A DNA stretch of 64,000 bases from Candidatus Woesebacteria bacterium (GCA_016432365.1 CP066686.1:874918-938917), one strand, 5' to 3'. Counted from the first letter of the stretch, positions 19,311 through 62,778 are shown. Program-made: numbers and translations. The notes: generated by a model from the letters alone, not told the origin.

Positions 19311-19380
19311 AAGTTAGAAGTCAAAACTCAAAATTTTTACTTTTGAATTGTATTTTTGACTTTTGCTTTTTGAATCTTAA
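19311..19380. repeat. interspersed repeat, family B, copy 1 (dnaX-ybaB intergenic)
   Basis: ttagaagtcaaaa...cttttgaattgtatttttgacttttgctttttgaat. Related to 42285..42395. Confidence 0.6.
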
Positions 19381-19381
19381 T

Positions 19382-43235: not shown

Positions 43236-43335
43236 ATCAGCCACATCAGAAAAGTTCAGAGATGTCAGAGGGGCTTGCCGGCAGGAATTCATCCAAATTA
43301 TTCTGATTTATCCGACCCTCTGGTATAATTCGTGT

Positions 43336-43881
43336 ATGATCAGAAAAATAGTTCAGTCCGGCGACCCGATTTTAAGACGAAAATCCAAAAACATTGCCAA
43401 GGTGGACAAAAAGGTTTTGGATATAATTAAGGACCTTAAAGATACTCTAAAAATTCAAAAGGAGCCGGAGGGCGTAGGACTTGCGGCCCCACAAATTGGG
43501 AAAAATCTAAATATTTTTATTGCGGATTACAAAAATTTTCAAAGGGTGGTAATAAACCCTGAAATACTAAAAATGAGCGAAAAGCAACCCCGCTCCGCCA
43601 AGGCTACGCGGGGCAAGAAAACTAATAAGGAAATACTTGAAGGCTGTTTATCGCTTCCCTATTATTACGGACCACTAAAACGGGCAGATAAAATTACAGT
43701 TAAATATCTAAACGAAAAGGGAGTAGAAATTACAGAAGATTTCGAAGGTTTTGACGCTCAAATAATCCTTCATGAAATTGACCATCTTAACGGCACCCTG
43801 TTCATCGACAGGCTTTTTGAAGAAAAAAAACCCTTGTATAAAGTTGATGGAGATGAATGGGAGGAGATAGAACTCGTATGA
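43336..43881 (+). CDS. def: peptide deformylase
   Basis: GVGLAAPQIG, EGCLS, HEIDHLNG motifs. Confidence 0.9.
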   Translation: MIRKIVQSGDPILRRKSKNIAKVDKKVLDIIKDLKDTLKIQKEPEGVGLAAPQIGKNLNIFIADYKNFQRVVINPEILKMSEKQPRSAKATRGKKTNKEILEGCLSLPYYYGPLKRADKITVKYLNEKGVEITEDFEGFDAQIILHEIDHLNGTLFIDRLFEEKKPLYKVDGDEWEEIELV

Positions 43882-44726
43882 AAATAGTTTTCTTTGGCAC
43901 ACCGGATTATGTTCTGCCTGTTCTCACCACCCTTCACAAAAAATTTGTGTCCGGCCCCGGAAAGTCTCCAATTGTTGCTGTAGTGACCCAAAGTCCCAAA
44001 CCAACCGGCAGAAAACAATATCTAACATATTCTCCCGTAGACAAATGGGCCCACGAACGTAAAGTTTTTACACATTATTCGGCCGAAGAACTAATTGATG
44101 CCAATCTTGATATGGAAGTTGGAATTTTGGCTTCCTACGGAGAAATCATCAAAAAGGAAGTAATAGACCTGTTTCCTAAGGGAATACTAGTAATCCATCC
44201 GTCTCTTTTGCCAGCATATAGAGGCGCTTCCCCAATTCAAGCGGCAATCGCAAACGGAGACACTCAAACCGGCGTTACTATATTCAAGATGGATGAAAAA
44301 GTGGACCACGGCCCGATAATTACTCAGTTTAAAGAAGAAGTCCTTCCTGATGATACATTTGAAACTCTTCGAACAAGACTTTTTGAGAGGTCGGCAGAGG
44401 TTTTGACCGAAATGATCGAGCCCTATCTTAAAGGGAAAATTACTCCCAAAACTCAAGATGAAACTGATGCCACATATACCAAAATTGTAAAAAGAGAAGA
44501 TGGATTTATAGATCTCAAAAAAGACAGTCCGGAAAAAATTGAGAGACTATCCAGGGCAATGTATCCCTGGCCCGGTATCTGGACTTATTTGCCTAACGAA
44601 AAACGTCTAAAAATTCTTAAATGCCACCTCGAAAATGGTAAGTTGATTCTTGATGAAGTCCAGTTGGAGGGCAAAAATCCTGTCAGTTGGAAACAATTCG
44701 AAGAAGCCTACAAGGCAGAACTCTAA
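43878..44726 (+). CDS. fmt: methionyl-tRNA formyltransferase
   Basis: MKIVFFGTPDY N-terminus; formyltransferase HPSLLPAYRG...; C-terminal domain. 4-nt overlap with def. Confidence 0.85.
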   Translation: MKIVFFGTPDYVLPVLTTLHKKFVSGPGKSPIVAVVTQSPKPTGRKQYLTYSPVDKWAHERKVFTHYSAEELIDANLDMEVGILASYGEIIKKEVIDLFPKGILVIHPSLLPAYRGASPIQAAIANGDTQTGVTIFKMDEKVDHGPIITQFKEEVLPDDTFETLRTRLFERSAEVLTEMIEPYLKGKITPKTQDETDATYTKIVKREDGFIDLKKDSPEKIERLSRAMYPWPGIWTYLPNEKRLKILKCHLENGKLILDEVQLEGKNPVSWKQFEEAYKAEL

Positions 44727-45272
44727 TTAATTTTGATTGACCAAACTCTGAAGTTGATCCAATACTTCCCCCAATATTGGACCATGAGTTGTTGCCAATT
44801 TATCACTCGAACTAAAATATCTCACTAAAAAAGCTTTCCATGAGGGACCAGATTTAGAAACCATATCCACACCCCATCCAAAAGCATTATAACGCTCCTC
44901 GAACCACTCTTTGGCCCCAGACTCGTCGGGTACCGACATGCCGACAGTTGGATCATTTATGTCAAACCTTTGCCCAACAATCTTCGCTCCCTTAATCCTC
45001 GCCGCATAGTTACTTTTCTCTTCGTCGTCAATCAAAGTTTGTACCTCCAAAATCAAAGATTCCCCGATAGACCCATTCGCCAGCAAAACTTCCAATTTTG
45101 ACTTACCGGTTTGCGAGTGAAATAAAACCGATTTTAAATAACCCTCTGAACTAATCAGTGCAAAAATCGCTTCAGCTTGTGAAATTTGCTCTTCTGTTGG
45201 TGTGTTCTCCTGAGCTTCAGATTTCACCTTAGTTAGTATAGAGTCTACAAGTTGCTGATGTGTTTCTTTCAT
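44727..45272 (-). CDS. hypothetical protein (181 aa)
   Basis: ORF only. Confidence 0.3.
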   Translation of the reverse strand: MKETHQQLVDSILTKVKSEAQENTPTEEQISQAEAIFALISSEGYLKSVLFHSQTGKSKLEVLLANGSIGESLILEVQTLIDDEEKSNYAARIKGAKIVGQRFDINDPTVGMSVPDESGAKEWFEERYNAFGWGVDMVSKSGPSWKAFLVRYFSSSDKLATTHGPILGEVLDQLQSLVNQN

Positions 45273-45352
45273 GCGGCAATTCTACTACTACCTATAGGCT
45301 ATGTCAAACATAAGAAATTGTAGCAAATCAGTCTCAATCCGCCAAATTATCG

Positions 45353-45613
45353 TCAAATACTTGCAGAGATAGAAGTCGAACGCTTTGGAGCTAATTTACC
45401 GACATTCTTAAATTTACTAATACAGTCGGTACAAAGCTTCATTTGAGACTTTTTGCCATTGACCATAACAGCTATCTTTTGGAGATTGGGTTTAAATTTT
45501 CTAAGTGTTACCTCTGCCCTCTTTTTCCAACGTTTACCGGCAACCCCTCTGTGATGAGAGCTGGTTCTGCCTGAAACCGTTCCTTTTCCGCAATTGTCGC
45601 AAATATATGCCAT
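45353..45613 (-). CDS. rpmB: 50S ribosomal protein L28 (zinc-ribbon form)
   Basis: CDNCGKG...GRTSSHHRG..KR.....LRKFKPNLQK; second Cys pair CTDC. Confidence 0.75.
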   Translation of the reverse strand: MAYICDNCGKGTVSGRTSSHHRGVAGKRWKKRAEVTLRKFKPNLQKIAVMVNGKKSQMKLCTDCISKFKNVGKLAPKRSTSISASI

Positions 45614-45683
45614 AAATTTAGTAGCTAGCAACTAGTGACTAGTAGCTAGGGATGAATTATACTATCAAAGACATATAAATTCA

Positions 45684-46325
45684 ATGGAAATATTATTAAT
45701 CATACTTGGAATTGCCGGACTGGCATACACAATAATTATCCACGAGGTCGCTCACGGTTGGATGGCTAACTACCTAGGCGATCCAACAGCACGGATATCG
45801 GGTAGATTAACCCTTAACCCAATTCCACACATTGACCCATTGGGAACTATAATTGTTCCGCTTCTAATGTATTTTTCCCCAGCCCACTTCGTTTTTGGGT
45901 GGGCAAAACCGGTACCCATTGACCCTTACAACCTTAAAAATCCAAAAAAGGATACTTTGCTCATTTCGCTGGCAGGACCTCTTTCCAATATGGTCTTAGC
46001 TTTGGTGTTAGCCGTCATTTTTTGGTTAATACCAATGCCTCAAATAATGGCAGATCTGGTAAAAACTATGGTTGGACTTAACGTAAGCTTGGCGGTTTTT
46101 AATTTGATTCCGATTTCCCCACTCGACGGAGAAAAAATACTTGTCGGGCTTTTACCCCACAAGGAAGCCAGAGAATTTGAATATTTTATGAGTAAATTCG
46201 GAATGATTTTACTGGCATTCTTAATATTTCCGATTTTTGGAGGTGTCTCCCTAATATCTCCGATTTTGTTCCCAATAATCAATTTTATATTGAATCTTCT
46301 AATACCAGGTTTCCCACGGTATTAA
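45684..46325 (+). CDS. site-2 protease family (M50) zinc metalloprotease
   Basis: HEVAHG zinc motif in TM1; multi-TM; LDGEK motif. Confidence 0.7.
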   Translation: MEILLIILGIAGLAYTIIIHEVAHGWMANYLGDPTARISGRLTLNPIPHIDPLGTIIVPLLMYFSPAHFVFGWAKPVPIDPYNLKNPKKDTLLISLAGPLSNMVLALVLAVIFWLIPMPQIMADLVKTMVGLNVSLAVFNLIPISPLDGEKILVGLLPHKEAREFEYFMSKFGMILLAFLIFPIFGGVSLISPILFPIINFILNLLIPGFPRY

Positions 46326-46644
46326 CTTTTTCATTTTTCACATTGACTTACGTGGTACAATTATATTGACCCTGTTAAAGAAGGATACGGTCGGAATTTC
46401 CTGATCAAGTATATTCTAAAATGGGAGGACGGAGTCCGTTAAGTAATGCGCAAGCTAGCTTAATGGCAGTTCACCCACCTGGTTTTTCCAGGAATATCGC
46501 CGTACTTTTGATAATGGGGTCATTTTTTGGCAAAAAACAGCTTCAATTTCTGATATAATTGGTTTTGATCCAAAATTGCTTGGCAATTTTGAGAGTGGAA
46601 GTTTCGACAGGCCGGGATAAGCGTAGCTTGTCCCCGCACTGCGT

Positions 46645-46716
46645 GCCGGGATAGCTCAACGGTGGAGCAACGCTTTTGTAAAGCGAAGGTTGAAGGTTCA
46701 AATCCTTTTCCCGGCT
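46645..46716 (+). tRNA. tRNA-Thr (anticodon TGT)
   Basis: Cloverleaf by hand: acceptor GCCGGGA/TCCCGGC, D-stem GCTC/GAGC, anticodon loop TTTGTAA, T-arm GAAGG-TTCAAAT-CCTTT. No CCA encoded. Confidence 0.8.
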
Positions 46717-46772
46717 CATAACAGTTCGCCGGTCGGATTTGATAGTGCCAAGATTGGTAGAGGCTTTGCACA

Positions 46773-46791
46773 CAAATCCTTTTCCCGGCTC
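46773..46791 (+). repeat. exact 19-nt duplicate of the tRNA-Thr(TGT) T-loop/3' acceptor end (caaatccttttcccggctc)
   Basis: Identical to 46699..46717 and lies 56 bp downstream of the tRNA. att-site-like footprint. Confidence 0.6.
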
Positions 46792-46839
46792 CCTAAACAC
46801 ACCTTTTTGGTGTACGATTAGCGCGTTGTATTAAAACAC

Positions 46840-46924
46840 GCTGAGGTGGCGGAGCGGTCAATCGCATCAGACTGTAAATCTGACGGCCGGAAGGCCTACA
46901 TAGGTTCGAATCCTGTCCTCAGCA
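46840..46924 (+). tRNA. tRNA-Tyr (anticodon GTA), class II with long variable arm
   Basis: Acceptor GCTGAGG/CCTCAGC, anticodon loop CTGTAAA, long variable arm, T-arm GGTTCGAATCC. Confidence 0.8.
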
Positions 46925-46930
46925 CATTTG

Positions 46931-47926
46931 TCATTTCTCCCACTCAGGCTGGGCGAAGTTTTGCATATAAATCGGAAGTTTTTCCTCCCCTATTAATTTC
47001 CTGTCACGATAAGTCAATTTCATAACAAGACCTCTTCTTGTTTCCTCACTCCACATCTGATCAAAAATAAAATTGCCAAGTGAATAATACACAGGTTTCC
47101 CGTTGATGTGATCAATTGATTGCACCCAATGCGGATGTGTCCCATACACAACATCCGCCCCCGCCCCCACTAGGTTTTTAGCTATTAGCTTTTGGCTTTT
47201 CGTTGGGTCTGTCGTGTATTCCAATCCCCAGTGCACAGCAACAATCAAAACATCCACCTTTTGTTTTGAATCAGAAGTTAATTGAAAGTCTTTATCCTTG
47301 GGAGCAAAATCAACGTAATCAAACCCCAAAAAACCAAATTTTGTACCATTTACTTCCTTAACCACCAAATTCCCGTCTCCGGTGTAATCTATCCCCGCCT
47401 TACTAAGAAAATTTTCAGTTTGAGATACCCCTTCTTTACCGTAATTTCCGGAGTGGTTATTGGCGATATTAACTACATCGATGCCTGCAAAAGTTAGGCC
47501 GTCAATCATTTTTGGATCCGCGCAAAATTTAAATCCCGAGCTTATCGAGGGACATTTTTCGATTATCGGATTTTCGAGATTGGCAAAAACAAGATCCGCG
47601 CCGGCAAGTGTGTCGCCAACTTTTAGAAATGGATAGGTGGGATCCCCTTTCTTCAAACTAACACCCATCACACTCCTCCCTAGCATGATATCCCCGGTTA
47701 AAAGTATAGAAATATCCTGCTTTCCGGAAAAATTGTTTACGAAGTTCTGGACCGAGTTGAGCTCAGTCCTGTTTTTAAGGTCCGGAGCCAGTACCGGTTT
47801 TGCAGAGATAACGTAAAGCAAAATTCCCAAAAAGCTTGCCGCAATTACCAAAATCCCCACCTGCCACCGATTCATGGTTTTAGTATACAGTTTGTGTATT
47901 GTATAATCATTGCTTGCGTCCCCCAC
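46931..47926 (-). CDS. CapA/PgsA-family metallophosphoesterase (poly-gamma-glutamate synthesis-like)
   Basis: N-terminal TM helix; GDIMLGR and GADLVFANLENP metallophosphatase motifs; NNHSGNYG; GTHPHW. Confidence 0.7.
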   Translation of the reverse strand: MGDASNDYTIHKLYTKTMNRWQVGILVIAASFLGILLYVISAKPVLAPDLKNRTELNSVQNFVNNFSGKQDISILLTGDIMLGRSVMGVSLKKGDPTYPFLKVGDTLAGADLVFANLENPIIEKCPSISSGFKFCADPKMIDGLTFAGIDVVNIANNHSGNYGKEGVSQTENFLSKAGIDYTGDGNLVVKEVNGTKFGFLGFDYVDFAPKDKDFQLTSDSKQKVDVLIVAVHWGLEYTTDPTKSQKLIAKNLVGAGADVVYGTHPHWVQSIDHINGKPVYYSLGNFIFDQMWSEETRRGLVMKLTYRDRKLIGEEKLPIYMQNFAQPEWEK

Positions 47927-48020
47927 AAAATTGCACGCAATTTTGAGAGGAGGAATAGCGAAACGGATAGATTTTGGCCTTTTAAGGCCAAATATCGCGA
48001 AGTGAAGCTTATTCCGACAA

Positions 48021-48092
48021 GCCTGGGTAGCTCAGTGGTAGAGCGCGTTCTTGGTAAGAACGAGGTCGTGGGTCCAATCCCCACCTCAGGCT
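48021..48092 (+). tRNA. tRNA-Thr (anticodon GGT)
   Basis: Acceptor GCCTGGG/CTCAGGC (one G-U), D-arm GCTCAGTGGTAGAGC, anticodon loop TTGGTAA, T-arm GTGGGTCCAATCCCCAC. Confidence 0.8.
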
Positions 48093-48120
48093 CAAAGATT
48101 GTGTCGTTCTCGGCTATGCC

Positions 48121-48171
48121 GTAAGAACGAGGTCATGGGGGTAGTCCCCACCTCAGGCTCAAAGATTGTGT
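48121..48171 (+). repeat. degenerate duplicate of the 3' half of tRNA-Thr(GGT) plus 12 nt of downstream flank
   Basis: gtaagaacgaggtcatgggggtagtccccacctcaggctcaaagattgtgt versus the original 48054..48104 (about 80% identity; the flank caaagattgtgt is identical). Confidence 0.6.
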
Positions 48172-48221
48172 ATTACACTCGCCCTTGTCGTTTGGTGTCA
48201 TGACTGGTAAAATACCCATGT

Positions 48222-48407
48222 ATGGCAAAAAAGGGCGCCCGAGAACTTGTTAGCATGATTTGTTCCGTATGTAAAAATCAAAATTACATTTCTACCCGGA
48301 ATAAAGTTAATATGGACGTAAAAGGTAAAGGTAAGCTCCAAATCAAAAAATATTGCAAATTTTGCCGAAAGTCTCAGCTTCACAAAGAGAGCTCCAAGCT
48401 CAAATAA
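48222..48407 (+). CDS. rpmG: 50S ribosomal protein L33 (zinc-ribbon form)
   Basis: MAKKG...CSVCKNQNY.STRNK.N...L...KYCKFCRK..LHKE. Confidence 0.8.
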   Translation: MAKKGARELVSMICSVCKNQNYISTRNKVNMDVKGKGKLQIKKYCKFCRKSQLHKESSKLK

Positions 48408-48459
48408 ACCTTACTTAGCTTTTGCCCACTCCCCTTGATATAATTAAACGTATCAATTT

Positions 48460-48533
48460 AGGGTCGTCGTTCAACGGCAGGACAGCGGTCTCCAAAACCG
48501 CTAATGATGGTTCGATTCCATCCGACCCTGCCA
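48460..48533 (+). tRNA. tRNA-Trp (anticodon CCA)
   Basis: Anticodon arm GCGGT-CTCCAAA-ACCGC, T-arm GGTTCGATTCC, acceptor AGGGTCG/CGACCCT, encoded CCA. Confidence 0.75.
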
Positions 48534-48573
48534 CATTTAGTTCACTTAGTTACGAACGTGGCTGGCCATGTAA

Positions 48574-49005
48574 ATGAAAGAAGATAAGGTGTGTTATAAT
48601 TTATCAGATAGAAACATGGTAGATACACAAATCGAGCAAGCTGGTGGAAATGAAATAAAACAAGCCCCTCCTCATTACGTAATCACAGTAGAAGATTTTT
48701 ATAGCGGTCACTATGCCGACAAAATAACACAAGGTGAGTGTGTGGTAGGCAAACTCTTCGGTGAGCCAAAAAGAGAAGATTATGATTCTGAGGCTGAGTA
48801 TCAAAGTAATCAAGCCGCTTTTGACCTCGTTATAAAAATAAATCCTACAGGAAATTTACAAACTTTTAATACGGTTGAAAAACAAGGTGATTACTATTTA
48901 ATGACATCTTTTGATAAAAGTGGTGGTGTTGGAACAATGCCAATGAGCGGAGACGAAAAACTTCTTGTATTTTCAAGGACTCCAAAATTATCTTCAGGTA
49001 GTTAG
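48574..49005 (+). CDS. hypothetical protein (143 aa)
   Basis: ORF. Its 3' end lies inside direct-repeat copy DR34-1. Confidence 0.35.
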   Translation: MKEDKVCYNLSDRNMVDTQIEQAGGNEIKQAPPHYVITVEDFYSGHYADKITQGECVVGKLFGEPKREDYDSEAEYQSNQAAFDLVIKINPTGNLQTFNTVEKQGDYYLMTSFDKSGGVGTMPMSGDEKLLVFSRTPKLSSGS

Positions 49006-49025
49006 AAACTAAAAATTTGCCATTT
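48992..49025. repeat. direct repeat DR34 copy 1 (cttcaggtagttagaaactaaaaatttgccattt)
   Basis: 32/34 identical to 49701..49734. The pair brackets CDS 49041..49652. Confidence 0.7.
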
Positions 49026-49040
49026 GCAGAGTAGCAACCC

Positions 49041-49652
49041 CTACTTTACAACCCTCATTCTGCTTGTCGGTATATTCTCCGGGATCAGAATTTCTGGTAA
49101 ATTAAAATCCCCATAATCGCCTTCACTCCCATCGTGCCCTTCCTTTAGATATTCGGATAAAGGTTTCGCTGTTTCCCAGTAACTTTTTGCGTATGATCTA
49201 GCCGCTTCTAATCCAAAACCCTCCAAATAAGAATCGGCCTCGGTATAATACTCGCCTTCTGCTACGACCGCATTTTGCATTTTCGGATCTATCATGGCTT
49301 CAACAATCACACTTTTTTTGGGGTCGTATGACAAACCCACATTAAACCTATCCGGTCGCCTTGGAAAAGCAAAAACACGTTTAGTTCTATCGACGCCTAC
49401 ACCCATATCCTGTGCCGTTTGATTAAATATTTCCTCAAGTTTTTGTTGTCGCCCGTTCATTCGATTATCTTCAACACGAAAACCATTATCAGCGACATGC
49501 TGCAAACTTTCTTTGCTTACTAGGATGTATACAGGGATAAACCCTTTTGGAATCTCACCGAAATCTCTCAAGGAAAATGGGATCTCATTTTTTGTGGATA
49601 GATTTTGATTATGCGTTTCTAACCCGTCGGCCTCAAGAGCATCAGCATTCAT
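49041..49652 (-). CDS. hypothetical protein (203 aa)
   Basis: ORF flanked by the DR34 pair. No motif recognised. Confidence 0.35.
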   Translation of the reverse strand: MNADALEADGLETHNQNLSTKNEIPFSLRDFGEIPKGFIPVYILVSKESLQHVADNGFRVEDNRMNGRQQKLEEIFNQTAQDMGVGVDRTKRVFAFPRRPDRFNVGLSYDPKKSVIVEAMIDPKMQNAVVAEGEYYTEADSYLEGFGLEAARSYAKSYWETAKPLSEYLKEGHDGSEGDYGDFNLPEILIPENIPTSRMRVVK

Positions 49653-49700
49653 ATTTTAACTATACATTATGAAGGCTGTAGCTCAAATTGTTTTAGATAC

Positions 49701-49734
49701 CTTCAGGTAGTTGGAAACTAAAAATTTGCCACTT
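49701..49734. repeat. direct repeat DR34 copy 2
   Basis: cttcaggtagttggaaactaaaaatttgccactt. Preceded by a 13-codon remnant ORF (MKAVAQIVLDTFR*). Confidence 0.7.
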
Positions 49735-49764
49735 TTCCGAGGGATTTCCATCCAGACCCGCAAA

Positions 49765-50322
49765 CTATTTAGGCAAGAAAAGGAAATCAACCAAGGTTTT
49801 TATTTGTTCTTCTATGTTTTGAGTTCGTATTGAATTGTCTATAACAATTCTCTCCTCAATATCCATTGGACTGTCGACCTCTCTCGATATGTATTGGCCG
49901 TCGATATTTCCTTTTCCGGCAACTTCTTCTTCACAAACAACCTCAATCCAAACAACTTTCTTGTTATTTCTCTGGGCCAATCCTACCGCTTTTTGCCGAT
50001 ATTCCAACTTCGAAAAAGTCGCATCTAAAACAACAGAATGTGCCCCCTCATCAAATAGTTTTTGTGCATTATCAAGCATATCTTCTAGGGCTACTTCCGA
50101 GTGCCAAGGCTCATATTGAATTTCAGAAATTCTTTTTCGCCTAAATACGTCGCTAGACAGTGTTGGGGTTTCCAATCGAAGACTGATTTCGTTAGCTATT
50201 GTGGTTTTTCCTACACCAATTTTTCCAAACACAACCACAACAATAGGCTCGGAAACACTTATTCGTAATTCTTTTGATTCAAACCCCGTTGCTTTAACCT
50301 TCTCAATACCCATATGCAACAA
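49765..50322 (-). CDS. P-loop kinase, AAA_33 / polynucleotide-kinase-like
   Basis: VVVFGKIGVGKTT Walker A; D..F......R pattern resembling the T4 Pnk / zeta-like kinase domain; 185 aa. Confidence 0.5.
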   Translation of the reverse strand: MLHMGIEKVKATGFESKELRISVSEPIVVVVFGKIGVGKTTIANEISLRLETPTLSSDVFRRKRISEIQYEPWHSEVALEDMLDNAQKLFDEGAHSVVLDATFSKLEYRQKAVGLAQRNNKKVVWIEVVCEEEVAGKGNIDGQYISREVDSPMDIEERIVIDNSIRTQNIEEQIKTLVDFLFLPK

Positions 50323-50365
50323 TCATACCAAAATTGAGCAAGCTTTCGACTACACTTTACTCATT

Positions 50366-50415
50366 CCCAACTTTTTGGGCCAGGAGTCGCCCTTCGGAGT
50401 AATTATAAACATCAT
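50366..50415. repeat. direct repeat DR50 copy 1 (perfect 50-mer)
   Basis: cccaactttttgggccaggagtcgcccttcggagtaattataaacatcat. Identical to 51425..51474. Confidence 0.85.
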
Positions 50416-50534
50416 TTTTTATCAGTTGCGTCAAATCTTTGTACAACACTCCTAAAACCCCTGTCCACCTTTCTAACGGTTGGGGCACTCTATCTAATAT
50501 CAACTAAGGAATTTAGTCACCTGCCATAAACCAA

Positions 50535-51461
50535 TTGCACTCCAACAATTGTTTGTCAACGATTTCTAACAATTGGTATACTAGATTCTCCATGTCTGAT
50601 CGTCCACAACAAGAAAAGGAATTTCGAATACGACCGTCTTTATTCGATTCTTTAGACCTACTTCCGCAGACTCCAGAACAAGCCTTAAAGTTCGGTGCTG
50701 AGTATTACAAAGAATTTCTTGAACCGGTTCTTCCGGGACTGGCCAGCGAAGTTGCAAAAATTCAGCAAGAAACAGGTGTACCAAATGACAAAACAGCATG
50801 TGTCTTCTTGGAAAGAGACGCTAGGCCTGCAATGCTTGCCTGGCACGAACTCACGACAGGATCCTCCCTCACTTCACTTTCAATACCAATTTCTGCAACG
50901 CAAATGGACGAAATATTTGAACTTTACCCGCCGTTCGAAAATGCAAACCTTGGACTCATTAAAAATCCCGACGAATGGTCCCGAACTTGGGCACATGAGA
51001 TTGATCCACTTTTCCATTATTTTGGAAATTCCCAAAATTGGGTTGATGCTATACGCGAAAGTCACGGCAAAAAACTAGCTAATACTAAACTCATTAATGT
51101 TGTTGATATCGGATACCACGGCAGCGCCGTTGAAACTGGACGTTACTTACTAAAAAGGGCTTTTCCTGATAAAACAGTAAAATCAATTTTGCTTTATCGT
51201 TACTCAGACGAAATTCCTATACGGTGCGTCAAATCTGACGAAACTACATGGTACGCAGAAAAATCTATCCCCCATACAACATCCGGGTATGCTTTAAGTG
51301 CTGGTAAATACAGGTATCTAAGACCAGAGGCAACAAAAAATAGTATCGAAATTGAAAACCAGTTCTACCGCGGGGTTATTAAGGCAGCCAGAAAAGATAA
51401 AGAGAGATTTAGACTTTTGTCATCCCCAACTTTTTGGGCCAGGAGTCGCCCTTCGGAGTAA
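50535..51461 (+). CDS. hypothetical protein (308 aa; TTG start, or Met at 50592)
   Basis: ORF bracketed by the DR50 pair. Its last 12 codons lie in DR50 copy 2. Confidence 0.35.
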   Translation: MHSNNCLSTISNNWYTRFSMSDRPQQEKEFRIRPSLFDSLDLLPQTPEQALKFGAEYYKEFLEPVLPGLASEVAKIQQETGVPNDKTACVFLERDARPAMLAWHELTTGSSLTSLSIPISATQMDEIFELYPPFENANLGLIKNPDEWSRTWAHEIDPLFHYFGNSQNWVDAIRESHGKKLANTKLINVVDIGYHGSAVETGRYLLKRAFPDKTVKSILLYRYSDEIPIRCVKSDETTWYAEKSIPHTTSGYALSAGKYRYLRPEATKNSIEIENQFYRGVIKAARKDKERFRLLSSPTFWARSRPSE

Positions 51462-52086
51462 TTATAAACATCATCCTTTTGTCGGTAATAGTACGGGGCT
51501 TGGAAGTTCCCCCAACTTTAATCTCGTTCGAATCCCACCAGCGCCTTTGAAAATCCTTAATTCTAAATCTTCTGTCCACCCCTGCGAACTTATGGAACGG
51601 GTCAGCAATTCTTAAATAACCTCTGTTTTTATCTACACGGGTAACAACGCCGTAATGCCCATCGTCTTCGTCTGCATCCTCGTAAAAAACTCCCTGCCAC
51701 TCTACACCTACCGGAAATCCATATTTGTTTACAATTGTATCCAAGTCACTTATTTTAGAATTAGCTTTTTTCCAGAAAGAAAAACCACCTTTGCCGGCAA
51801 TTTTAGATGCCCTTGCCAAGTCTCTTACACTCATACCCCATTTTCTGATTTTCTTCTGGGCGCGAAGAGAGGCCACAATTCGTTTTTGAAAAACCTTTAC
51901 TCCCAGGAAGGAGAAAAGCATGGCAAGGACGGCAGGGCCACAGCTATAGATGTCTACCTGCTTGATCCTGGCCATTTTAGGGAGGGCAACCCCCTGAAGC
52001 CTGTCCTGTAAGGCCAAAAGACGCCTGACTACCGCCCGAACAGTCCTGTTGGTATTTATTTCCATTTGGCCCAATTGTACGGCCAT
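51409..52086 (-). CDS. papain-like cysteine peptidase, C39-like domain
   Basis: QVDIYSCGPAVLAMLFSFLG matches the Q...SCGPA.LAM catalytic-Cys motif of Peptidase_C39-like domains; downstream His/Asp candidates (DGHYGVV). True start may be the internal Met. Confidence 0.45.
   Translation of the reverse strand: MAVQLGQMEINTNRTVRAVVRRLLALQDRLQGVALPKMARIKQVDIYSCGPAVLAMLFSFLGVKVFQKRIVASLRAQKKIRKWGMSVRDLARASKIAGKGGFSFWKKANSKISDLDTIVNKYGFPVGVEWQGVFYEDADEDDGHYGVVTRVDKNRGYLRIADPFHKFAGVDRRFRIKDFQRRWWDSNEIKVGGTSKPRTITDKRMMFIITPKGDSWPKKLGMTKV
51425..51474. repeat. direct repeat DR50 copy 2
   Basis: Perfect 50/50 match to 50366..50415, with one further match 5 nt upstream. Confidence 0.85.
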
Positions 52087-52103
52087 TAGTCAAATTTGTC
52101 CAC

Positions 52104-53177
52104 CTATATATTTCTGGCGTATTTGGAAAGAAGACTTCCAATTGTTTCCGAAAACTCGACTCCATTCATCGACATTACCTCTGTCATCGGAAGACCTATG
52201 TCGGGCCCAAACGCTGTATTGGGATTACTGTCTGTAAAATACGGAATATGAGTATTTTCATCAACCCTTATATCAAACTTTGCATAATCTTTATGTTGTA
52301 ACCCTCCGAAAGCTCTCACCGCAAGTTTTTTGATTTCATACTTTAAACTTTCTTCAACGGGAACATATCTATATGCCCTTGCATCAGAATACGATTCAAA
52401 ACTTGTAAAAAAATGCTTTCCGTCCGGTTTTTTTCTAAATACTTTTTGGGCCATAAAGACATGACGTTTAACGTTGTCTTCAAAAACCACAACCGTAATT
52501 TCCGGCCCATCAATAAACTTTTCTACAATTACAGGAACTTTATAGGTTGAAACCATATGATTGACTCTTAGTTTAGCTGCTCTGTCTGTTTCTTTGACTG
52601 ATGTGTCATTTATACCAACGCTTCCCCCACCTTCATTTAATTTGACTATTAGAGGCAAGCCCAAATCTTCGTCGATGTTTGTTCCGGCGCGACGAATAAA
52701 CTGAAAAGGAGGAGTCGGAACATCGTAAGCCATAAGAAGTCTCTTTGTTAAGTTACGGTTATTACCAATAATTAAGCCTTCCATTCCGGCACCGGTATAG
52801 GGAATGTTGGCAAGCTCAAGAGCCGCCGGAACCGATGGCTGAAGCTGATCTCGACCTTTTAATGTATCAACAAGGTTAATGACCAGATCGGGTCTGTCCA
52901 CCAACAAGTTGGTATAAAAATATTGATCCCCGGGAAGGGTGCGAGTGGGAATTCCGAGTTTCCTAACTTCTTCTGATACCTCAATTGCCCTCGCTTCTAC
53001 TTCGATTTCGGCTTCATATGCATCTTTAGTAGCAAAATTCTCCCGTTCAACAGATGAGTAAGCCACAACAACCAGCCGGAATTTTTTGAGAGCCTCTTTA
53101 TCTACAGACAACTTAATGTTTTCCCTGGACGGAGATTTTTTTATTTCGACTTCTTCCTCGACTTTGGCAGTGGGCAT
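52104..53177 (-). CDS. D-alanine--D-alanine ligase family ATP-grasp enzyme
   Basis: Ddl-like central and C-terminal domains: NIPYTGAG, PLIVKLNEGGGSVGI, ARFDIRVDENTHIPYFTDSNPNTAFGP. Confidence 0.65.
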   Translation of the reverse strand: MPTAKVEEEVEIKKSPSRENIKLSVDKEALKKFRLVVVAYSSVERENFATKDAYEAEIEVEARAIEVSEEVRKLGIPTRTLPGDQYFYTNLLVDRPDLVINLVDTLKGRDQLQPSVPAALELANIPYTGAGMEGLIIGNNRNLTKRLLMAYDVPTPPFQFIRRAGTNIDEDLGLPLIVKLNEGGGSVGINDTSVKETDRAAKLRVNHMVSTYKVPVIVEKFIDGPEITVVVFEDNVKRHVFMAQKVFRKKPDGKHFFTSFESYSDARAYRYVPVEESLKYEIKKLAVRAFGGLQHKDYAKFDIRVDENTHIPYFTDSNPNTAFGPDIGLPMTEVMSMNGVEFSETIGSLLSKYARNI

Positions 53178-53213
53178 ATATATATAGTAAAAGGTAAAAA
53201 GTAAAAGGTAAAG

Positions 53214-53678
53214 ATGTATAATTTTGATATGAAGAATAAGCAGAGCTTGCCATCAAATGGTAAAGTATTGGTTGGCGGGTGTTTTGATATTCTGCATTAT
53301 GGACATATTCACTTCCTTAAACACGCTAAGGCTTTGGGAAACCATCTTGTGATTGCTCTCGAGTCAGACAAAAATATCAAAAAATTAAAAGGGGTCGGGC
53401 GCCCCATTCATGATCAGAATAAAAGACGTGAAGTTCTTGAATCTTTAAACTTTGTAGATGAAGTAATAATTTTGAAAGACGAAATGCGCGATAGCGATTA
53501 TTTTGAACTGGTTGACAGGGTCCGACCCCTGGTAATCGCAGTCACCGCCGGAGACCCGATGATTGAAAAAAAGAAGTCTCATGCCTTCAAGGTCGGAGCC
53601 AAGGTTATTGAAATCCCCAAAATCGATTCGCCCTCAACGACACAAATTGCCAGGCTTTTAGAACTTGAGACAAATTGA
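53214..53678 (+). CDS. cytidylyltransferase-like nucleotidyltransferase (HldE domain II / TagD-like)
   Basis: GGCFDILHYGH (HxGH) motif near the N-terminus; 154 aa. Confidence 0.6.
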   Translation: MYNFDMKNKQSLPSNGKVLVGGCFDILHYGHIHFLKHAKALGNHLVIALESDKNIKKLKGVGRPIHDQNKRREVLESLNFVDEVIILKDEMRDSDYFELVDRVRPLVIAVTAGDPMIEKKKSHAFKVGAKVIEIPKIDSPSTTQIARLLELETN

Positions 53679-53762
53679 AAAGTTGACAAATGCAGTAATA
53701 GACCTATAATTAGGCCGAATACACACAAATGTTGTGTAAATCTTGCACCTTAGGAGCAAAAA

Positions 53763-54044
53763 ATGCCCGTAACATATTCGCTTGTAAAACCCGTTGCCAA
53801 TCCCAGTACCAAACCAAGGAAAAAGCGAACAACAGTACATCCAACGGCAAGAGAGATCGTGTTGGAAGCCAAAGGGCTAGATCTGAATAGGGTTGCTTTA
53901 CTGGCACACCAATCTGATGATCTATGTCTTACAAGACCTTTGCCGGCCGGTAAATCTGTAAATTTATGTCTCTACTGTGGCGCCGAAATGGAACTGGATC
54001 AGAACCAGTGCGCAGAATGTGACAACTTTGTTTCCAGTCTCTGA
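53763..54044 (+). CDS. hypothetical protein with C-terminal zinc-ribbon-like CxxC...CxxC
   Basis: CLYCGAEMELDQNQCAEC; GC is higher than the surrounding sequence. Confidence 0.3.
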   Translation: MPVTYSLVKPVANPSTKPRKKRTTVHPTAREIVLEAKGLDLNRVALLAHQSDDLCLTRPLPAGKSVNLCLYCGAEMELDQNQCAECDNFVSSL

Positions 54045-54213
54045 ATGAATCCATTTTTCCTTGAGGGGAGCAGAAAAAACAACAAATTTCAAAATTTGAT
54101 TGCATACTCTGCTCCCCGTACCACCCTCTAATCTTTCTCCAAAAAAAACGGGAGAAAAGATTTCCAAGATACAATAGTAAATTGTAAATTCTTGGTTCTC
54201 CCTTCTCCCTTAA

Positions 54214-54639
54214 CTAATGTGTTGACCGTCTTGTGTGCTTTCCGTGTCGGGACGCGTCGTTAGGGCTTAATGAAGCAATGTATTTCGCCTTTTGGATATA
54301 CAGCTCCATCTTGCCTGTACGAAGATTTGGCTGCCATCTTCCTACATCTCCATTAGGAAAATAGACCAACTGGCCAAATTCGGGCCTGCCCTCAGTCTTT
54401 TCGTCCGGCATGGGCTGGCTTTCAACAATCATCGGTCCTGCATCTATTCTCGAAAACCTTTTGGTGTCTTCATCCCGACGATACGTCTCTTTTTTGCCTT
54501 CTTCTCTTTCGACGGTCACAATCCCGGTGACCAGATCGAGCACTCCTTCCAAGAGTTCTCCCTTGCCCTTGACGCTAGCAAAGAAAGTAATTCTCTTTGT
54601 CTTGGCGTTCCCGTCAACATCCGACCGTTTCATTCTCAC
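54214..54639 (-). CDS. hypothetical protein (141 aa)
   Basis: ORF in a patch of relatively high GC. Confidence 0.3.
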   Translation of the reverse strand: MRMKRSDVDGNAKTKRITFFASVKGKGELLEGVLDLVTGIVTVEREEGKKETYRRDEDTKRFSRIDAGPMIVESQPMPDEKTEGRPEFGQLVYFPNGDVGRWQPNLRTGKMELYIQKAKYIASLSPNDASRHGKHTRRSTH

Positions 54640-54715
54640 TTCAGCCTCCGATCAAATTTGTACTTAAATTACTGTCTCAAAATGTGCCAGACGAGATTTT
54701 ACCACACACACCATA

Positions 54716-55966
54716 TTATTCCCAAGTCTTGATTTCCCCCTGAGGTAAACGAAATTTTTTTGGAGTTACAAAAAGAAGTAAAACTGACACTACCACTACG
54801 ATCACCCCCACAATACCGAACGTCATTTGTTCCCCTACTTTTGAAGAAATCAGTCCCGTAAACGGTGGGGCAAAAATATATGAGATATTTACCATCGAAT
54901 TGGTTAAACCTATCATTTCTTTTTTCTCTCTACCCATTCTGGCAACAACATCAGAATAAACGCCTTCTATTAATGGATAGCTGATTGATACCGCGATGGA
55001 AGACAGGAGTACCATAGAAAGCTGCCAGAAAACGGTTCCGCTTAATGTTAATGCAATCAAAAATAATCCTGCCAAAATTAACATTTTTTCACTTAAGATT
55101 TTCTTGCCTTTATATATTCCCCACCTGGCAATAATTAAACCCGTGACAATGCCTGGAAATTGGTATATCGGCAAAAACAACCCTCCCCAGAAATTTTCTC
55201 CGGAAAGTTTTTCTGTATAAACCGCACCCGTTGTCCAAAAAGTTGAATCGATTAATCCCAAAAGCAAACTTATTACTATTGCCGGCCACACCACCTTACC
55301 AAGGGTGAGCCAATGCCTAATTTCTAACCCGGGGTTTACTTCGGTTAAATCAACTTTTACAGGAATATCGTGAACTTTTTCTGTAATCAGAAGTAAGATC
55401 AGTGCAGCCACCAAAAATAAAATAATCGAAGCTTCCGTAATGACGTAACCCCTATACAGAAGATAAGATGCAATAAGAGGTCCTAAAAAATAGGCCAAAT
55501 TCAAAAATATTCCGGCTACTCCCCAAGCCGACGAGCGCATGTGTGGAGGCACAGATCCTTCCATAAATTGATAACTGGCGAATGAAATTAGTTCATAATA
55601 AATCCCCCAAAGTGCCATGGTGACAAGAAATATTGAAACAAAAGGCCAAAATATTGTGTTTACGAGAAAAAACGAAGTAAAGCCCGACATCATTATTCCC
55701 CAAAACACAAGTCCTCTTGCGCGGACACCTCGGAGTAACTTTGGAAAAACGATATCTGCCATTAGCCCAACAACAGACTGAAAACTTATAATTAATCCCA
55801 TTACCACAGAGCTCCCCAAAACACTTTGGATCTGAACCGGAGCCCAAAAACTTATAATTCCGTCGCTCAACCTGGCCAAAAACAGAATGAAACAGAAAAG
55901 CAAAATCTTTGGCCAAAATTCATTTTGAGAAATTTGAAGATATCTTCTGGAGAATAACGCAAACAT
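54716..55966 (-). CDS. MFS-type transporter
   Basis: About 12 predicted TM helices. Start set at the internal Met (MFALFSRRYL); the upstream part of the ORF looks non-coding. Confidence 0.6.
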   Translation of the reverse strand: MFALFSRRYLQISQNEFWPKILLFCFILFLARLSDGIISFWAPVQIQSVLGSSVVMGLIISFQSVVGLMADIVFPKLLRGVRARGLVFWGIMMSGFTSFFLVNTIFWPFVSIFLVTMALWGIYYELISFASYQFMEGSVPPHMRSSAWGVAGIFLNLAYFLGPLIASYLLYRGYVITEASIILFLVAALILLLITEKVHDIPVKVDLTEVNPGLEIRHWLTLGKVVWPAIVISLLLGLIDSTFWTTGAVYTEKLSGENFWGGLFLPIYQFPGIVTGLIIARWGIYKGKKILSEKMLILAGLFLIALTLSGTVFWQLSMVLLSSIAVSISYPLIEGVYSDVVARMGREKKEMIGLTNSMVNISYIFAPPFTGLISSKVGEQMTFGIVGVIVVVVSVLLLFVTPKKFRLPQGEIKTWE

Positions 55967-56084
55967 GATTAATCTTAAGTTCCCCGGAAATTTTATGCAA
56001 GATTTTGAAAATTGAAACATTGTGTATATAATAATGGCCTGTACTGGCACGTTTGTAACAAAAATCTTTTTTCTGGAGAGAAAA

Positions 56085-56351
56085 ATGAGCCAAACTGCAT
56101 GTATTTGCAATCCCTTACACTCCCATAAAAACAAGAGGTGCAAAAGATGTTTCCCTCCCAAGTGGAAACAAAAGAAAATTCAAACCGGAATGACCGGACA
56201 TGACCCCAAGCGGTATGCTGAAATTAAACAGCATGTCGGTATCAAGTTGGGTGAGGCCCTACTTTTGCAAAGCGCACCAATTCCTGTGGAGACCGATGAT
56301 GAAGAACCGACAGAATGGGAAGAAATTGATCGTGAATACGCCGACGCGTAA
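56085..56351 (+). CDS. hypothetical Cys/His-rich small protein
   Basis: CICNPLHSHKNKRCKRC; acidic C-terminus. Confidence 0.2.
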   Translation: MSQTACICNPLHSHKNKRCKRCFPPKWKQKKIQTGMTGHDPKRYAEIKQHVGIKLGEALLLQSAPIPVETDDEEPTEWEEIDREYADA

Positions 56352-56513
56352 CAAATCAGCGTCAAAACCGGCGGTTTCGATCAATAAACACAAAAGCCAA
56401 GGAGCAAGAAAGATAACCAGGGACGGAAAAAAGTAGTTACAATTGAACAAAAATACCGAAAGGTGGAATGAAAATTTCTCAGCCCACCTTTCGGTACGTC
56501 TTTTAAGTTCTTC

Positions 56514-56555
56514 CTTTTCGCTTTTCGCTTTTCGCTTTTCGCTTTTCGCTTTTCG
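56514..56555. repeat. 7-bp tandem repeat (cttttcg), about 5-6 copies, downstream of gmd
   Basis: Head-to-tail cttttcg units. My hand count (5) and the ORF-track frame (implies 6) disagree by one unit, so copy number and end coordinate are approximate. Confidence 0.6.
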
Positions 56556-61976: not shown

Positions 61977-62778
61977 GTTTAGAACTCCAAGTGTTGACGA
62001 AGGCTTTTCTGTGTAATTTGGTCATTCCATGTTTTTTGATGGCTTTTTGATGTTCTTTTGTGCCGTAACCCTTGTTTTTACCCCATTTGTAAATCCTGAA
62101 TTTTGAATTATTTGATAATTTTGTCATCAAACTATCTCGATAAACTTTAGCTATAATTGAGGCCGCCGCGATTGAAATTGATTTCGTGTCCCCTTTGACA
62201 ATCGCCTTCTGATTTCTACGTCTTAAACCCTTTACATAAGGTATGTAAAAAGCATCTATTAGAAGATAGTCAATCGAAGTCTGATGTGAGAAATTTGAAG
62301 TTTGAATAGGAAATATGAATTTAGAATTATGAATTTTGAGTTTTCGGGCCTCAGACTTCATTTTTCGAACTTCGTTATCCCGCTTCGCTTCTCTGTCTTC
62401 CAAATTCTTACTGGCCACTTTGATCGCCAATCGGAAAGCTATCTCACTCGCCTTTTTGGTCCCAAATTTATTTATCTGAGCAACACTCGCCTGACCAATT
62501 CCAACTGCGAGTGCGTTTTCCCTTATCCACTTATCCGCGATCTCTCTTTGTTTCGGAGACAGTCGCTTTGAATCATTGATAATTATCTGATTATTTGCAT
62601 ATTTGCTTTTCAGCGCAGCTGACGACATTCGCTTATTGAAGACGGCGCATCCGGCTACAACCGGACCTGCAAAACAGCCCCGGCCCACCTCGTCTACTCC
62701 GGCAACGGTTTTAAAACCTCGTTTCCAAGCTTTTTTTTCGAAAGAGAAATCCGGTAATTCCATTTGTCGTTTTTTCAT
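61951..62778 (-). CDS. rnhB: ribonuclease HII with about 50-aa internal insertion
   Basis: GVDEVGRGCFAGPVV and DSK catalytic motifs. An extra low-complexity segment (NLEDREAKRDNEVRKMKSEARKLKIHNSKFIFPIQTSNFSHQ) is encoded by repeat-like DNA at 62288..62400. Confidence 0.8.
   Translation of the reverse strand: MKKRQMELPDFSFEKKAWKRGFKTVAGVDEVGRGCFAGPVVAGCAVFNKRMSSAALKSKYANNQIIINDSKRLSPKQREIADKWIRENALAVGIGQASVAQINKFGTKKASEIAFRLAIKVASKNLEDREAKRDNEVRKMKSEARKLKIHNSKFIFPIQTSNFSHQTSIDYLLIDAFYIPYVKGLRRRNQKAIVKGDTKSISIAAASIIAKVYRDSLMTKLSNNSKFRIYKWGKNKGYGTKEHQKAIKKHGMTKLHRKAFVNTWSSKLEARNPKS
62288..62400. repeat. family-A-related repeat fragment inside the rnhB coding sequence
   Basis: aaatttgaagtttgaatagg...tttttcgaacttcgttatcccgcttcgcttc shares the ttcgaa(t/c)ttcg...gcttcg blocks with family A. 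Confidence 0.45.

Follow-up and report, generated by a model that had tools for sequence, protein, structure and literature searches.

A recombination hot spot beside a tRNA gene cluster in Candidatus Woesebacteria, with orphaned gene ends around inserted genes

How do single genes come to lie between pairs of long direct repeats beside a cluster of tRNA genes? This question is raised by a 64-kb stretch of a metagenome-assembled Candidatus Woesebacteria genome (CP066686.1, 874918-938917), in the following called the window, whose positions are counted from its first letter. A cluster of four tRNA genes is followed there by a row of short genes, two of which are each bracketed by a repeat pair, and the initial annotation interpreted this as a modular cassette system or a decayed array of integrative elements at a tRNA hotspot. 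The present analysis leads to a different answer. The segment from 46.6 to 51.5 kb is a recombination hot spot beside the tRNA cluster, in which single accessory genes were inserted and orphan ends of the neighbouring genes were left. The long repeats are these orphaned gene ends and thus scars, not the recombination sites of a cassette system. Gene gain is poorly documented in bacteria of the Candidate Phyla Radiation, whose tiny genomes hold few recognisable mobile elements.

For the comparison, 24 Woesebacteria and Microgenomates loci were used, which resulted from a scan of species-representative genomes with the C39-like peptidase of the window. The genome closest to the window is that of locus L008, L011 also belongs to the closest ones, and L010 and L019 are more distant.

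Orphaned gene ends in a variable slot

The first repeat pair consists of R1 (48989-49025, plus strand) and R2 (49698-49734, plus strand) and brackets a gene for a 203-aa protein (49041-49652, minus strand). R1 is the 3′ end of a gene for a 143-aa protein (48574-49005, plus strand), comprising the last 14 nt of the gene, the stop codon and 20 nt downstream, and R2 is an orphan copy of this end. The two copies are 37 nt long and 709 nt apart and differ by 3 mismatches (92% identity), with a 31-nt stretch inside that contains only 1 mismatch. Compared with R1, R2 carries three transitions at scattered positions, and TGG stands in place of the stop codon TAG.

The second pair consists of two 70-nt copies (91% identity, 1059 nt apart) with a perfect 50-nt core at 50366-50415 and 51425-51474, and brackets an open reading frame (ORF) previously given as 308 aa. 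This ORF is better read as a 289-aa gene with an ATG at 50592 (50592-51461, plus strand), in agreement with the deposited annotation HYV90_05200 on the 1.08-Mb contig. The gene for the C39-like cysteine peptidase (51409-52086, minus strand; Pfam Peptidase_C39, 1.4e-7) has its true 3′ end in the copy at 51410-51479, whose minus strand holds the last 22 codons of this gene, RMMFIITPKGDSWPKKLGMTKV, followed by the stop codon. The copy at 50351-50420 reads KMMFIITPKGDSWPKKLGMSKV and a stop codon on the minus strand. Since it reads as the C39 C-terminus and stands behind stop codons, it is an orphan C39 3′ end, likewise covering the last 22 codons. The C-terminus encoded by the repeat is a protein motif conserved in 24 of 24 relatives.

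Both pairs show the same layout, in which a resident gene with its true end is followed by one inserted gene facing the resident gene and then by the orphan end. The two pairs share neither sequence nor structure, and neither derives from a tRNA. Each core occurs exactly twice in the 64 kb, where none is expected from 100 shuffles. The two pairs noticed in the initial annotation are therefore real, with the lengths and mismatches remeasured as given above. Reading them as structured RNA or attC-like sites was rejected, as they fold no better than shuffled sequences (z -0.2 to -0.9). The view that they are sites carried by cassettes fails as well: they are copies of the 3′ ends of local neighbour genes, they have no significant fold, and neither flanking repeats nor shared neighbours were found around homologues of the bracketed genes at the loci examined.

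The surroundings of these genes are conserved on both sides. On one side, the 24 loci show the order O-antigen-ligase-like gene, GDP-mannose dehydratase, MFS transporter, cytidylyltransferase, ATP-grasp ligase and C39 peptidase; on the other side, M50, fmt and def are preceded by the cluster of tRNA-Thr, tRNA-Tyr, tRNA-Thr, rpmG and tRNA-Trp. The Ddl-family ATP-grasp ligase (52104-53177, minus strand; Dala_Dala_lig_C, 2.1e-17) and the C39 peptidase, which anchors the variable interval, are present in order in 24 of 24 relatives, and the cytidylyltransferase (53214-53678, plus strand; CTP_transf_like, 2.7e-14) in 14 of 24. The domain assignments of these three genes were confirmed, and so was that of the kinase described below. 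Because the gene order of the flank is conserved across the relatives, ligase, peptidase and cytidylyltransferase belong to the flank and not, as previously assumed, to the cargo of an island.

The interval from C39 to tRNA-Trp ranges from 366 nt to 7.4 kb in the 17 relatives that have both landmarks. Counting ORFs of at least 80 aa, 48 of 68 (71%) are singletons inside the interval vs 32 of 162 (20%) in the block upstream of C39. Its contents in relatives include a nucleoside hydrolase, an AbiEii toxin (L008), an EEP-family enzyme, a second ATP-grasp ligase, an amino-acid kinase, QueA and a sigma factor. Interval length and singleton excess thus bear out the idea of an accessory, variable segment at a tRNA hotspot, and conserved syntenic flanks around variable content make the locus a region of genomic plasticity. 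The hot spot is common to all sampled Woesebacteria and lies between the conserved block and the tRNA cluster. In the window, the slot is filled by four lineage-specific stand-alone genes, i.e., the 143-aa gene, the 203-aa gene, a Pnk-like kinase gene and the 289-aa gene. The 143-, 203- and 289-aa genes were found in 0 of the 24 relatives. The bracketed units were not seen to come and go among related genomes as discrete cassettes: the content is variable and the flanks are syntenic, but no relative, none of them at strain level, carries the units as a whole or with the same ends.

No recombinase or transposase domain was detected in ORFs of at least 120 aa between 43.3 and 58.6 kb by searches against Pfam, PADLOC, PHROGs and NCBIfam and in precomputed Pfam results, in line with the initial annotation, in which no integrase had been recognised. 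Similarly, 20 variable-interval proteins from ten relatives contained no integrase (Pfam). The repeat scan gave no terminal inverted repeats, the duplications being 37 and 70 nt long, and homologues of the slot genes were found neither in viral contigs nor in phage genomes. Target-derived repeats and unbracketed homologues elsewhere argue against a cassette system or a decayed array of integrative elements. The bracketed proteins themselves were also considered as new recombinases, an idea that was dropped in view of their predicted folds. A diversity-generating retroelement was rejected too, as the mismatches are not adenine-specific and the predicted fold of the 289-aa protein resembles a phosphoribosyltransferase (PRTase) and not a reverse transcriptase.

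Insertions in this region need no repeats, as is evident from a 181-aa gene without family match (44727-45272), a window-specific insertion between fmt and the gene upstream of M50. At this site, the window has 672 nt vs 17 nt in L008, and no flanking repeat is present.

Proposed exchange with related lineages

Comparison with the closest genomes reveals an unusual end of the C39 gene. The nucleotide identity of window and L008 is approximately 0.80-0.83 over the ATP-grasp gene and most of C39, and 0.90-0.97 in the last 180 nt of C39. For L011, the body of C39 is 0.43-0.75 identical and the last 60 nt are 0.97 identical. Among codons for the same amino acid, 51 of 58 are identical to L008 in the last ~61 C39 codons, as compared with 75 of 139 over the remaining C39 codons and 196 of 339 over the ATP-grasp gene (together 271 of 478; Fisher p = 1.5e-6). 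In more distant relatives, the third codon positions of the C39 end show free variation, which makes a general nucleotide-level element unlikely. In the simplest reading, the last ~61 C39 codons (about 51412-51594) would be a tract that was exchanged recently and stops at the border of the island, so that the anchor gene carries a donor-like tract up to the insertion.

The repeat tails differ as well. The 50-nt core is free of mismatches, and all 6 that separate the 70-nt copies fall within the 20 bases flanking it. The tail attached to the gene is like that of L008, and the orphan tail differs from it in the way C39 tails differ between relatives; it looks like the tail of a different allele type. 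At its upstream edge, the similarity ends abruptly and only a run of A is shared. The last 19 codons of the 289-aa gene are not conserved in its homologues and represent a read-through into the antisense strand of the C39 end, which suggests that this junction is recent.

The tRNA alleles of the cluster are of mosaic ancestry. The tRNA-Thr(UGU) of the window is 100% identical to the alleles of L008 and L011, whose ATP-grasp genes are 95-96% identical. Its tRNA-Trp is only 70-72% identical to those of L008 and L011, but 95% to that of L010 and 91% to that of L019, and is therefore discordant with genome relatedness. In L011 and L024, the tRNA-Thr(GGU) allele is a divergent one, and an orphan 3′ end of the other allele lies 3-6 nt behind it.

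From these footprints we infer, with a probability of roughly one half, that the genes entered by recombination with DNA of a sister lineage, homologous on one side and illegitimate on the other. The incoming DNA would stem from a related lineage and carry its own copy of the resident gene end together with a new gene. On one side, homologous recombination would take place inside the resident gene; on the other, a non-homologous join would fall a few dozen bases ahead of the resident stop codon. As the donor would bring its own gene end and join near the stop, the resident gene would stay intact and its old end would be stranded. This pattern would correspond to homology-facilitated illegitimate recombination or, equivalently, to a single crossover by a circularised fragment.

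Several points weigh against this route. An adjacency of C39 and the 289-aa gene, or of the 143-aa and the 203-aa gene, as expected for a donor was found neither in the 24 genomes nor at the homologue loci. A closely related strain with an empty site was not found either: look-ups in Logan contigs gave the same strain only, and a metagenome scan with the kinase, seeking close strains or empty sites, gave distant matches only. A clade-specific constraint on the nucleotide sequence could instead be the reason for the raised synonymous identity of the C39 end, and the evenly spread three mismatches of the 37-nt pair fit in-place duplication and drift equally well. That two independent illegitimate joins both fell within the last 14-70 nt of an anchor gene is a coincidence unless selection or the mechanism favours it. 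Furthermore, natural DNA uptake by the organism is assumed, and an integrase encoded elsewhere in the 1.08-Mb genome might possibly act in trans.

The last point leads to the reading of the repeats as att sites of small decayed or non-autonomous integrative elements, mobilised by a tyrosine or serine recombinase in trans and bringing a replacement gene end. A duplicated gene end next to a gene that stays intact is what att sites classically show, the perfect 50-nt core between diverged arms resembles attL and attR, and the hypervariable locus adjoins tRNA genes. Tycheposon islands likewise hold scattered partial tRNAs along with degenerate elements (10.1101/2020.12.28.424599). Set against this are the missing recombinase domain in 43.3-58.6 kb and the lack of an integrase among the interval proteins of the relatives, the size of the units (0.7 and 1.06 kb, with one ordinary gene each), and repeat pairs that are unrelated to each other or to any tRNA. 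Homologues of the cargo genes occur elsewhere without such repeats. The form of an intact target with a displaced copy is seen at the ends of C39 and the 143-aa gene, where one gene is enclosed each, and not at the tRNAs, whose partial copies enclose 16 and 55 nt only. On balance, att sites are an unlikely explanation.

tRNA-derived copies and other accounts of the duplications

The tRNA genes were called with ARAGORN and then scored against the Rfam tRNA model, where all four reach 60-67 bits. Together with rpmG for ribosomal protein L33 (48222-48407, plus strand; ORF call), which has a conserved tblastn match at 17 of 24 relative loci, tRNA-Thr(UGU) (46645-46717), tRNA-Tyr(GUA) (46840-46925), tRNA-Thr(GGU) (48021-48093) and tRNA-Trp(CCA) (48460-48533), all on the plus strand, were verified where they had been annotated. 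A CapA-like PGA_cap gene (46931-47926, minus strand; Pfam, 1.1e-56) lies within the cluster; it is kept in L011, and L008 retains a 44-nt remnant only. Among the relatives the cluster is shuffled, with varying order and orientation, including that of tRNA-Tyr.

Two of the tRNAs are followed by partial copies of their 3′ ends, which had been taken for classical integration footprints. The copies exist, but they are not att footprints: one belongs to a tandem duplication, and the other is a hairpin arm, with mirrored versions of the hairpin occurring beside tRNA-Thr genes of relatives. For tRNA-Thr(GGU), the 3′ part and an 11-nt trailer are found again as a 51-nt copy (90% identity) at 48121-48171. 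This copy is part of an exact head-to-tail duplication (59 nt) of 48046-48104, which extends from the anticodon stem to the 11-nt trailer; the second unit occupies 48105-48171 (plus strand). Its anticodon loop is longer by 8 nt, and changes cluster in its T loop. For tRNA-Thr(UGU), the repeat scan revealed a perfect 19-nt copy of the 3′ end at 46773-46791, 55 nt past the gene. It forms one arm of a trailer hairpin (46728-46791, plus strand; -23 kcal/mol, z -2.0), whose other arm (46728-46741) repeats tRNA positions 55-73 imperfectly and in inverted orientation, with a loop in between. The homologous trailer element of L018 (10153-10214) has arms that match L018's own, different tRNA. A leader hairpin precedes the same tRNA in the window (46605-46643, plus strand; -21.7 kcal/mol, z -3.4), and its 5′ arm (GCCGGGATA) is a copy of tRNA-Thr(UGU) positions 1-9. 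L008 has a leader hairpin like that of the window, and longer versions are present in L012 (8166-8220), L014 (14600-14660 and 14793-14862), L021 (13924-13983) and L024 (13404-13470).

In a census of exact tRNA fragments of at least 12 nt, made up to a distance of 500 nt from each tRNA of the 25 loci, 11 fragments were detected, 10 of which adjoin tRNA-Thr genes; the remaining one, an inverted 12-mer, lies 465 nt away from tRNA-Tyr in L012. Two stereotyped types occur, namely positions 1-20 upstream of the gene (L012, L014 twice, L021 and L024) and positions 55-73 downstream of it (window and L018), and in each case an inverted copy intervenes. The copies of the first 20 or last 19 nt are identical to each genome's own tRNA. 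L014 and its close relative L021 differ by a clean 71-nt insertion of the hairpin type, which is present in one and absent in the other, and between L014 and L024 a compensatory change is found (CAGTGG/CCACTG vs CAGCGG/CCGCTG). The tRNA-Thr hairpin elements, including the window leader, fold strongly, with z from -3.4 to -7.0. An Rfam scan of 46400-51600 with E up to 1 gave no family that fits the hairpins; besides the four tRNAs, one further match was obtained at chance level (21 bits, E 0.84) on the opposite strand of tRNA-Thr(UGU).

The hairpins are not att scars, and they are the least explained part of the locus. They may be template-switch errors or functional leader and trailer RNAs, and the tRNA "footprints" as a whole are separate events at the same unstable locus. 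The closest relatives L008 and L011 as well as L026 encode a protein of ~210 aa with a helix-turn-helix (HTH) domain between tRNA-Thr(UGU) and an inverted tRNA-Tyr (L008 14322-14954; L011 11771-12436 and 15204-15845; L026 16111-16716). It has weak matches to IS630-type HTH domains and the motif LYWAEGSK, and the window has no copy of it. The gene might be mobile or encode a nuclease and in this way drive rearrangement; a classification as LAGLIDADG homing endonuclease on the basis of this motif was dropped, since profile searches detected the HTH only.

A common origin of all four duplications has been considered in the form of replication template switching at a fork-stalling, highly transcribed tRNA cluster, with the nascent strand returning upstream of its point of departure. 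Switching onto the same strand would give a tandem duplication, switching onto the complementary strand would give hairpins, and a distant or foreign template would give gene insertions flanked by re-copied target. A single process would then account for the tandem duplication and for the duplications flanking the inserts; it would also cover the direct-inverted-direct hairpins at tRNA-Thr in the window, L008, L012, L014, L018, L021 and L024 and the clean 71-nt difference between L014 and L021. Inverted triplications are a documented product of template switching (PMC11790251). Template switching as the source of all four duplications nevertheless appears improbable: the orphan C39 tail differs at 4 of 15 positions next to a perfect core, unlike a fresh re-copy, and the protein set of the genome contains no second 289-aa or 203-aa gene that could have served as template. 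In addition, hairpin arms that match their own tRNA in distant genomes call for repeated origin or selection.

Somewhat more doubtful still is the idea that gene-end orphans and tRNA hairpins go back to one undescribed process in Woesebacteria, which would insert or copy DNA at gene termini while regenerating them. The hairpins would then be functional structured RNAs that are co-transcribed with the tRNA and not mere scars, a role proposed because their arms remain identical to each genome's own tRNA.

It is very improbable that the repeats are working sites of an integrase-free cassette system, in which a unit of promoter and coding sequence loops out and re-inserts at the end of a convergent gene. 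A crossover between the two 50-nt cores would indeed yield an intact C39 gene ending in MSKV and the stop codon, with a 1059-bp circle set free. Each unit is hardly larger than its gene, carries a promoter of its own and borders on the 3′ end of a gene that runs towards it. The two repeat pairs, however, have no sequence or structure in common, no further copies occur within the window, homologues elsewhere lack the repeats, and with at most 18 identical bases in a row the 37-nt pair is a poor substrate for homologous recombination.

An assembly error, with the kinase joined to C39 in the true chromosome and the 289-aa gene located elsewhere or on a small circle, is hardly credible: short-k assemblies do break exactly at the 50-mer, but the copy-specific mismatches beyond the core are continuous with the unique flanks, the deposited 1.08-Mb contig spans the repeat, 50 nt is less than a normal read length, and independent contigs run through the 37-nt pair and the tRNA copies at 100% identity. 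These Logan contigs from two sequencing runs match the window at 42591-50395 and 51445-56543 with 100% identity and end exactly 30 nt inside the perfect 50-mer from both sides, because a graph with k=31 must break at a real repeat.

Slot genes and comparison with known systems

The initial annotation left the 143-, 203- and 308-aa proteins without a family, and searches against Pfam, PADLOC, PHROGs and NCBIfam gave no match for them either. The 203-aa and 143-aa families are small, and their members occur in unrelated contexts without repeats or common neighbours. The 143-aa protein has 4 homologues with 57-73% identity (P0017-P0020), three of which were looked up and lie in unrelated contexts. 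For the 203-aa protein, a DarT-like ADP-ribosyltransferase fold is predicted; its gene has a promoter-like site at 49686-49659 (TTGAGC-16-TATAGT). A toxin-antitoxin pair with the 203-aa protein was rejected, as the neighbours of its homologues are unrelated to each other, and no DarG macrodomain antitoxin was found beside the gene, whose neighbours are the P-loop kinase and the 143-aa protein without domain match.

The P-loop kinase (49765-50322, minus strand) belongs to AAA_33 (Pfam, 3.9e-12) and has the kinase domain of bacterial Pnkp as its best named match, far under the family cut-off. Among the relatives, a homologue is present in L031 only, there also downstream of C39 and one unrelated gene on the opposite strand. 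The promoter-like site of the kinase gene (50349-50322) lies directly past the orphan C39 end and not within it, which led to the rejection of the idea that the orphan was kept as carrier of this promoter.

The 289-aa protein is predicted to have a phosphoribosyltransferase-like fold, and its gene has a promoter-like site at 50553-50582 (TTGTCA-18-TATACT). The family is tiny, with 7 clusters among 1.84 billion representatives. Its homologues in two other contig groups (L004-L006 and L007; L004 3520-5619, L007 8767-10834) come directly after a RecD-like helicase (AAA_30/UvrD_C_2) and lack flanking repeats; this helicase is absent from the window. The family members P0012 and P0013 have an additional N-terminal part of ~240 aa without Pfam match.

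With the four databases named above, no known defence system was detected. Of the kinase, peptidase and proteins without family that had been suggested as a defence or toxin-like module, the C39 peptidase belongs to the conserved flank. A toxin or nucleotide-modifying role of the slot genes is a plausible hypothesis.

In L008, the MFS transporter and a 141-aa gene were lost, with short remnants remaining (window 53703-56161 vs L008 7296-7800), so that the conserved flank is also eroding in places. Downstream of the GDP-mannose dehydratase gene, a 43-nt palindrome is conserved (window 56441-56555; L008 6856-6898; L011 5571-5614), followed in the window by ~7 tandem CTTTTCG units; palindrome and units are probably a terminator region. 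Intergenic segments of 100-115 nt that precede genes are repeated with 79-88% identity in L031 (14386-14500 and 17578-17692, also 17016-17084) and L029 (11928-12030 and 13806-13908). They may be shared leaders or regulatory RNAs, a phenomenon distinct from the gene-end orphans. Other long direct repeats in the window comprise only two simple or AT-rich families and one weak distant pair. A ~160-nt array of 12- and 18-nt periodic repeats at 15008-15168 (GTTGCAGTAGCA-like) is probably a repetitive coding stretch, and AT-rich dispersed repeats (TTTTGACTTTTGCATTTTGAATTTTGAC-like) are located at 18332, 19323-19386, 20626, 36021, 42340-42403 and 62282-62345.

The locus provides a concrete, datable case of units of promoter plus gene that were added at a conserved hot spot, with footprints that point to recombination with sister-lineage DNA and not to integrases. 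Essential tRNA genes in the hot spot were themselves exchanged between lineages. Two small uncharacterised protein families gain testable fold predictions, namely a DarT-like ADP-ribosyltransferase and a transferase of the phosphoribosyl pyrophosphate (PRPP) type, and the stereotyped tRNA-Thr hairpins may represent a mutational signature or a new tRNA-linked RNA element.

On the level of single proteins, the likeness of the 203-aa protein to DarT of DarTG (PDB 7omu, 7yk3, 7omv, 8baq) and to BC2332 (2aua) is one of predicted fold, with no detectable sequence similarity, and unlike in DarTG the gene has neither a macrodomain partner nor a conserved neighbour. The 289-aa protein is comparable with PRPP-dependent polysaccharide ribofuranosyltransferases (PDB 8a0c, Bcs3, and 7shg) and with phosphoribosyltransferases, to which its tiny family has no sequence match; in contrast to the ribofuranosyltransferases, its homologues follow the RecD-like helicase and not glycan genes.

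The tRNA-Thr hairpins share with template-switch duplications (PMC11790251) the layout of copy, inverted copy and original, and differ from them in their 20-nt scale, their fixed bounds (tRNA positions 1-20 or 55-73) and arms that match the genome's own tRNA.

Integron cassettes are likewise single-gene units in a row in a variable locus, whereas here neither an IntI integrase nor attC or attC-like hairpins were found, the repeats are direct and copy the target, and the units have their own promoters and mixed orientation. Tycheposons and other integrase-borne tRNA islands (10.1101/2020.12.28.424599) resemble the locus in the streamlined genome, the tRNA-adjacent hot spot and the partial tRNA copies. 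They are unlike it in that the window lacks a tyrosine recombinase, the partial tRNA copies enclose no cargo, and the repeats come from the ends of protein-coding genes.

Homology-facilitated illegitimate recombination and Campbell-type single crossover have been described for naturally transformable bacteria. On the proposed route, the locus would agree with these cases in one homologous anchor, added foreign DNA, a non-homologous junction and a leftover duplicate of the anchor, and differs in that it is read from sequence alone and the homologous segments are very short.

In overall form, the locus resembles hot spots of genomic plasticity, which lie between conserved core genes and in many cases next to tRNA genes, and with which it shares syntenic flanks, mostly unique content, mosaic borders and toxin-type content (AbiEii in L008, the predicted DarT-like fold in the window). 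Unlike typical plasticity regions, it is very small (0.4-7 kb, single genes), its tRNA genes are themselves swapped, inverted and partly duplicated, and neither the window nor the scanned proteins of the relatives showed an integrase or remnants of phages. The locus is a variant of the known genome-plasticity hot spots and not a new kind of system.

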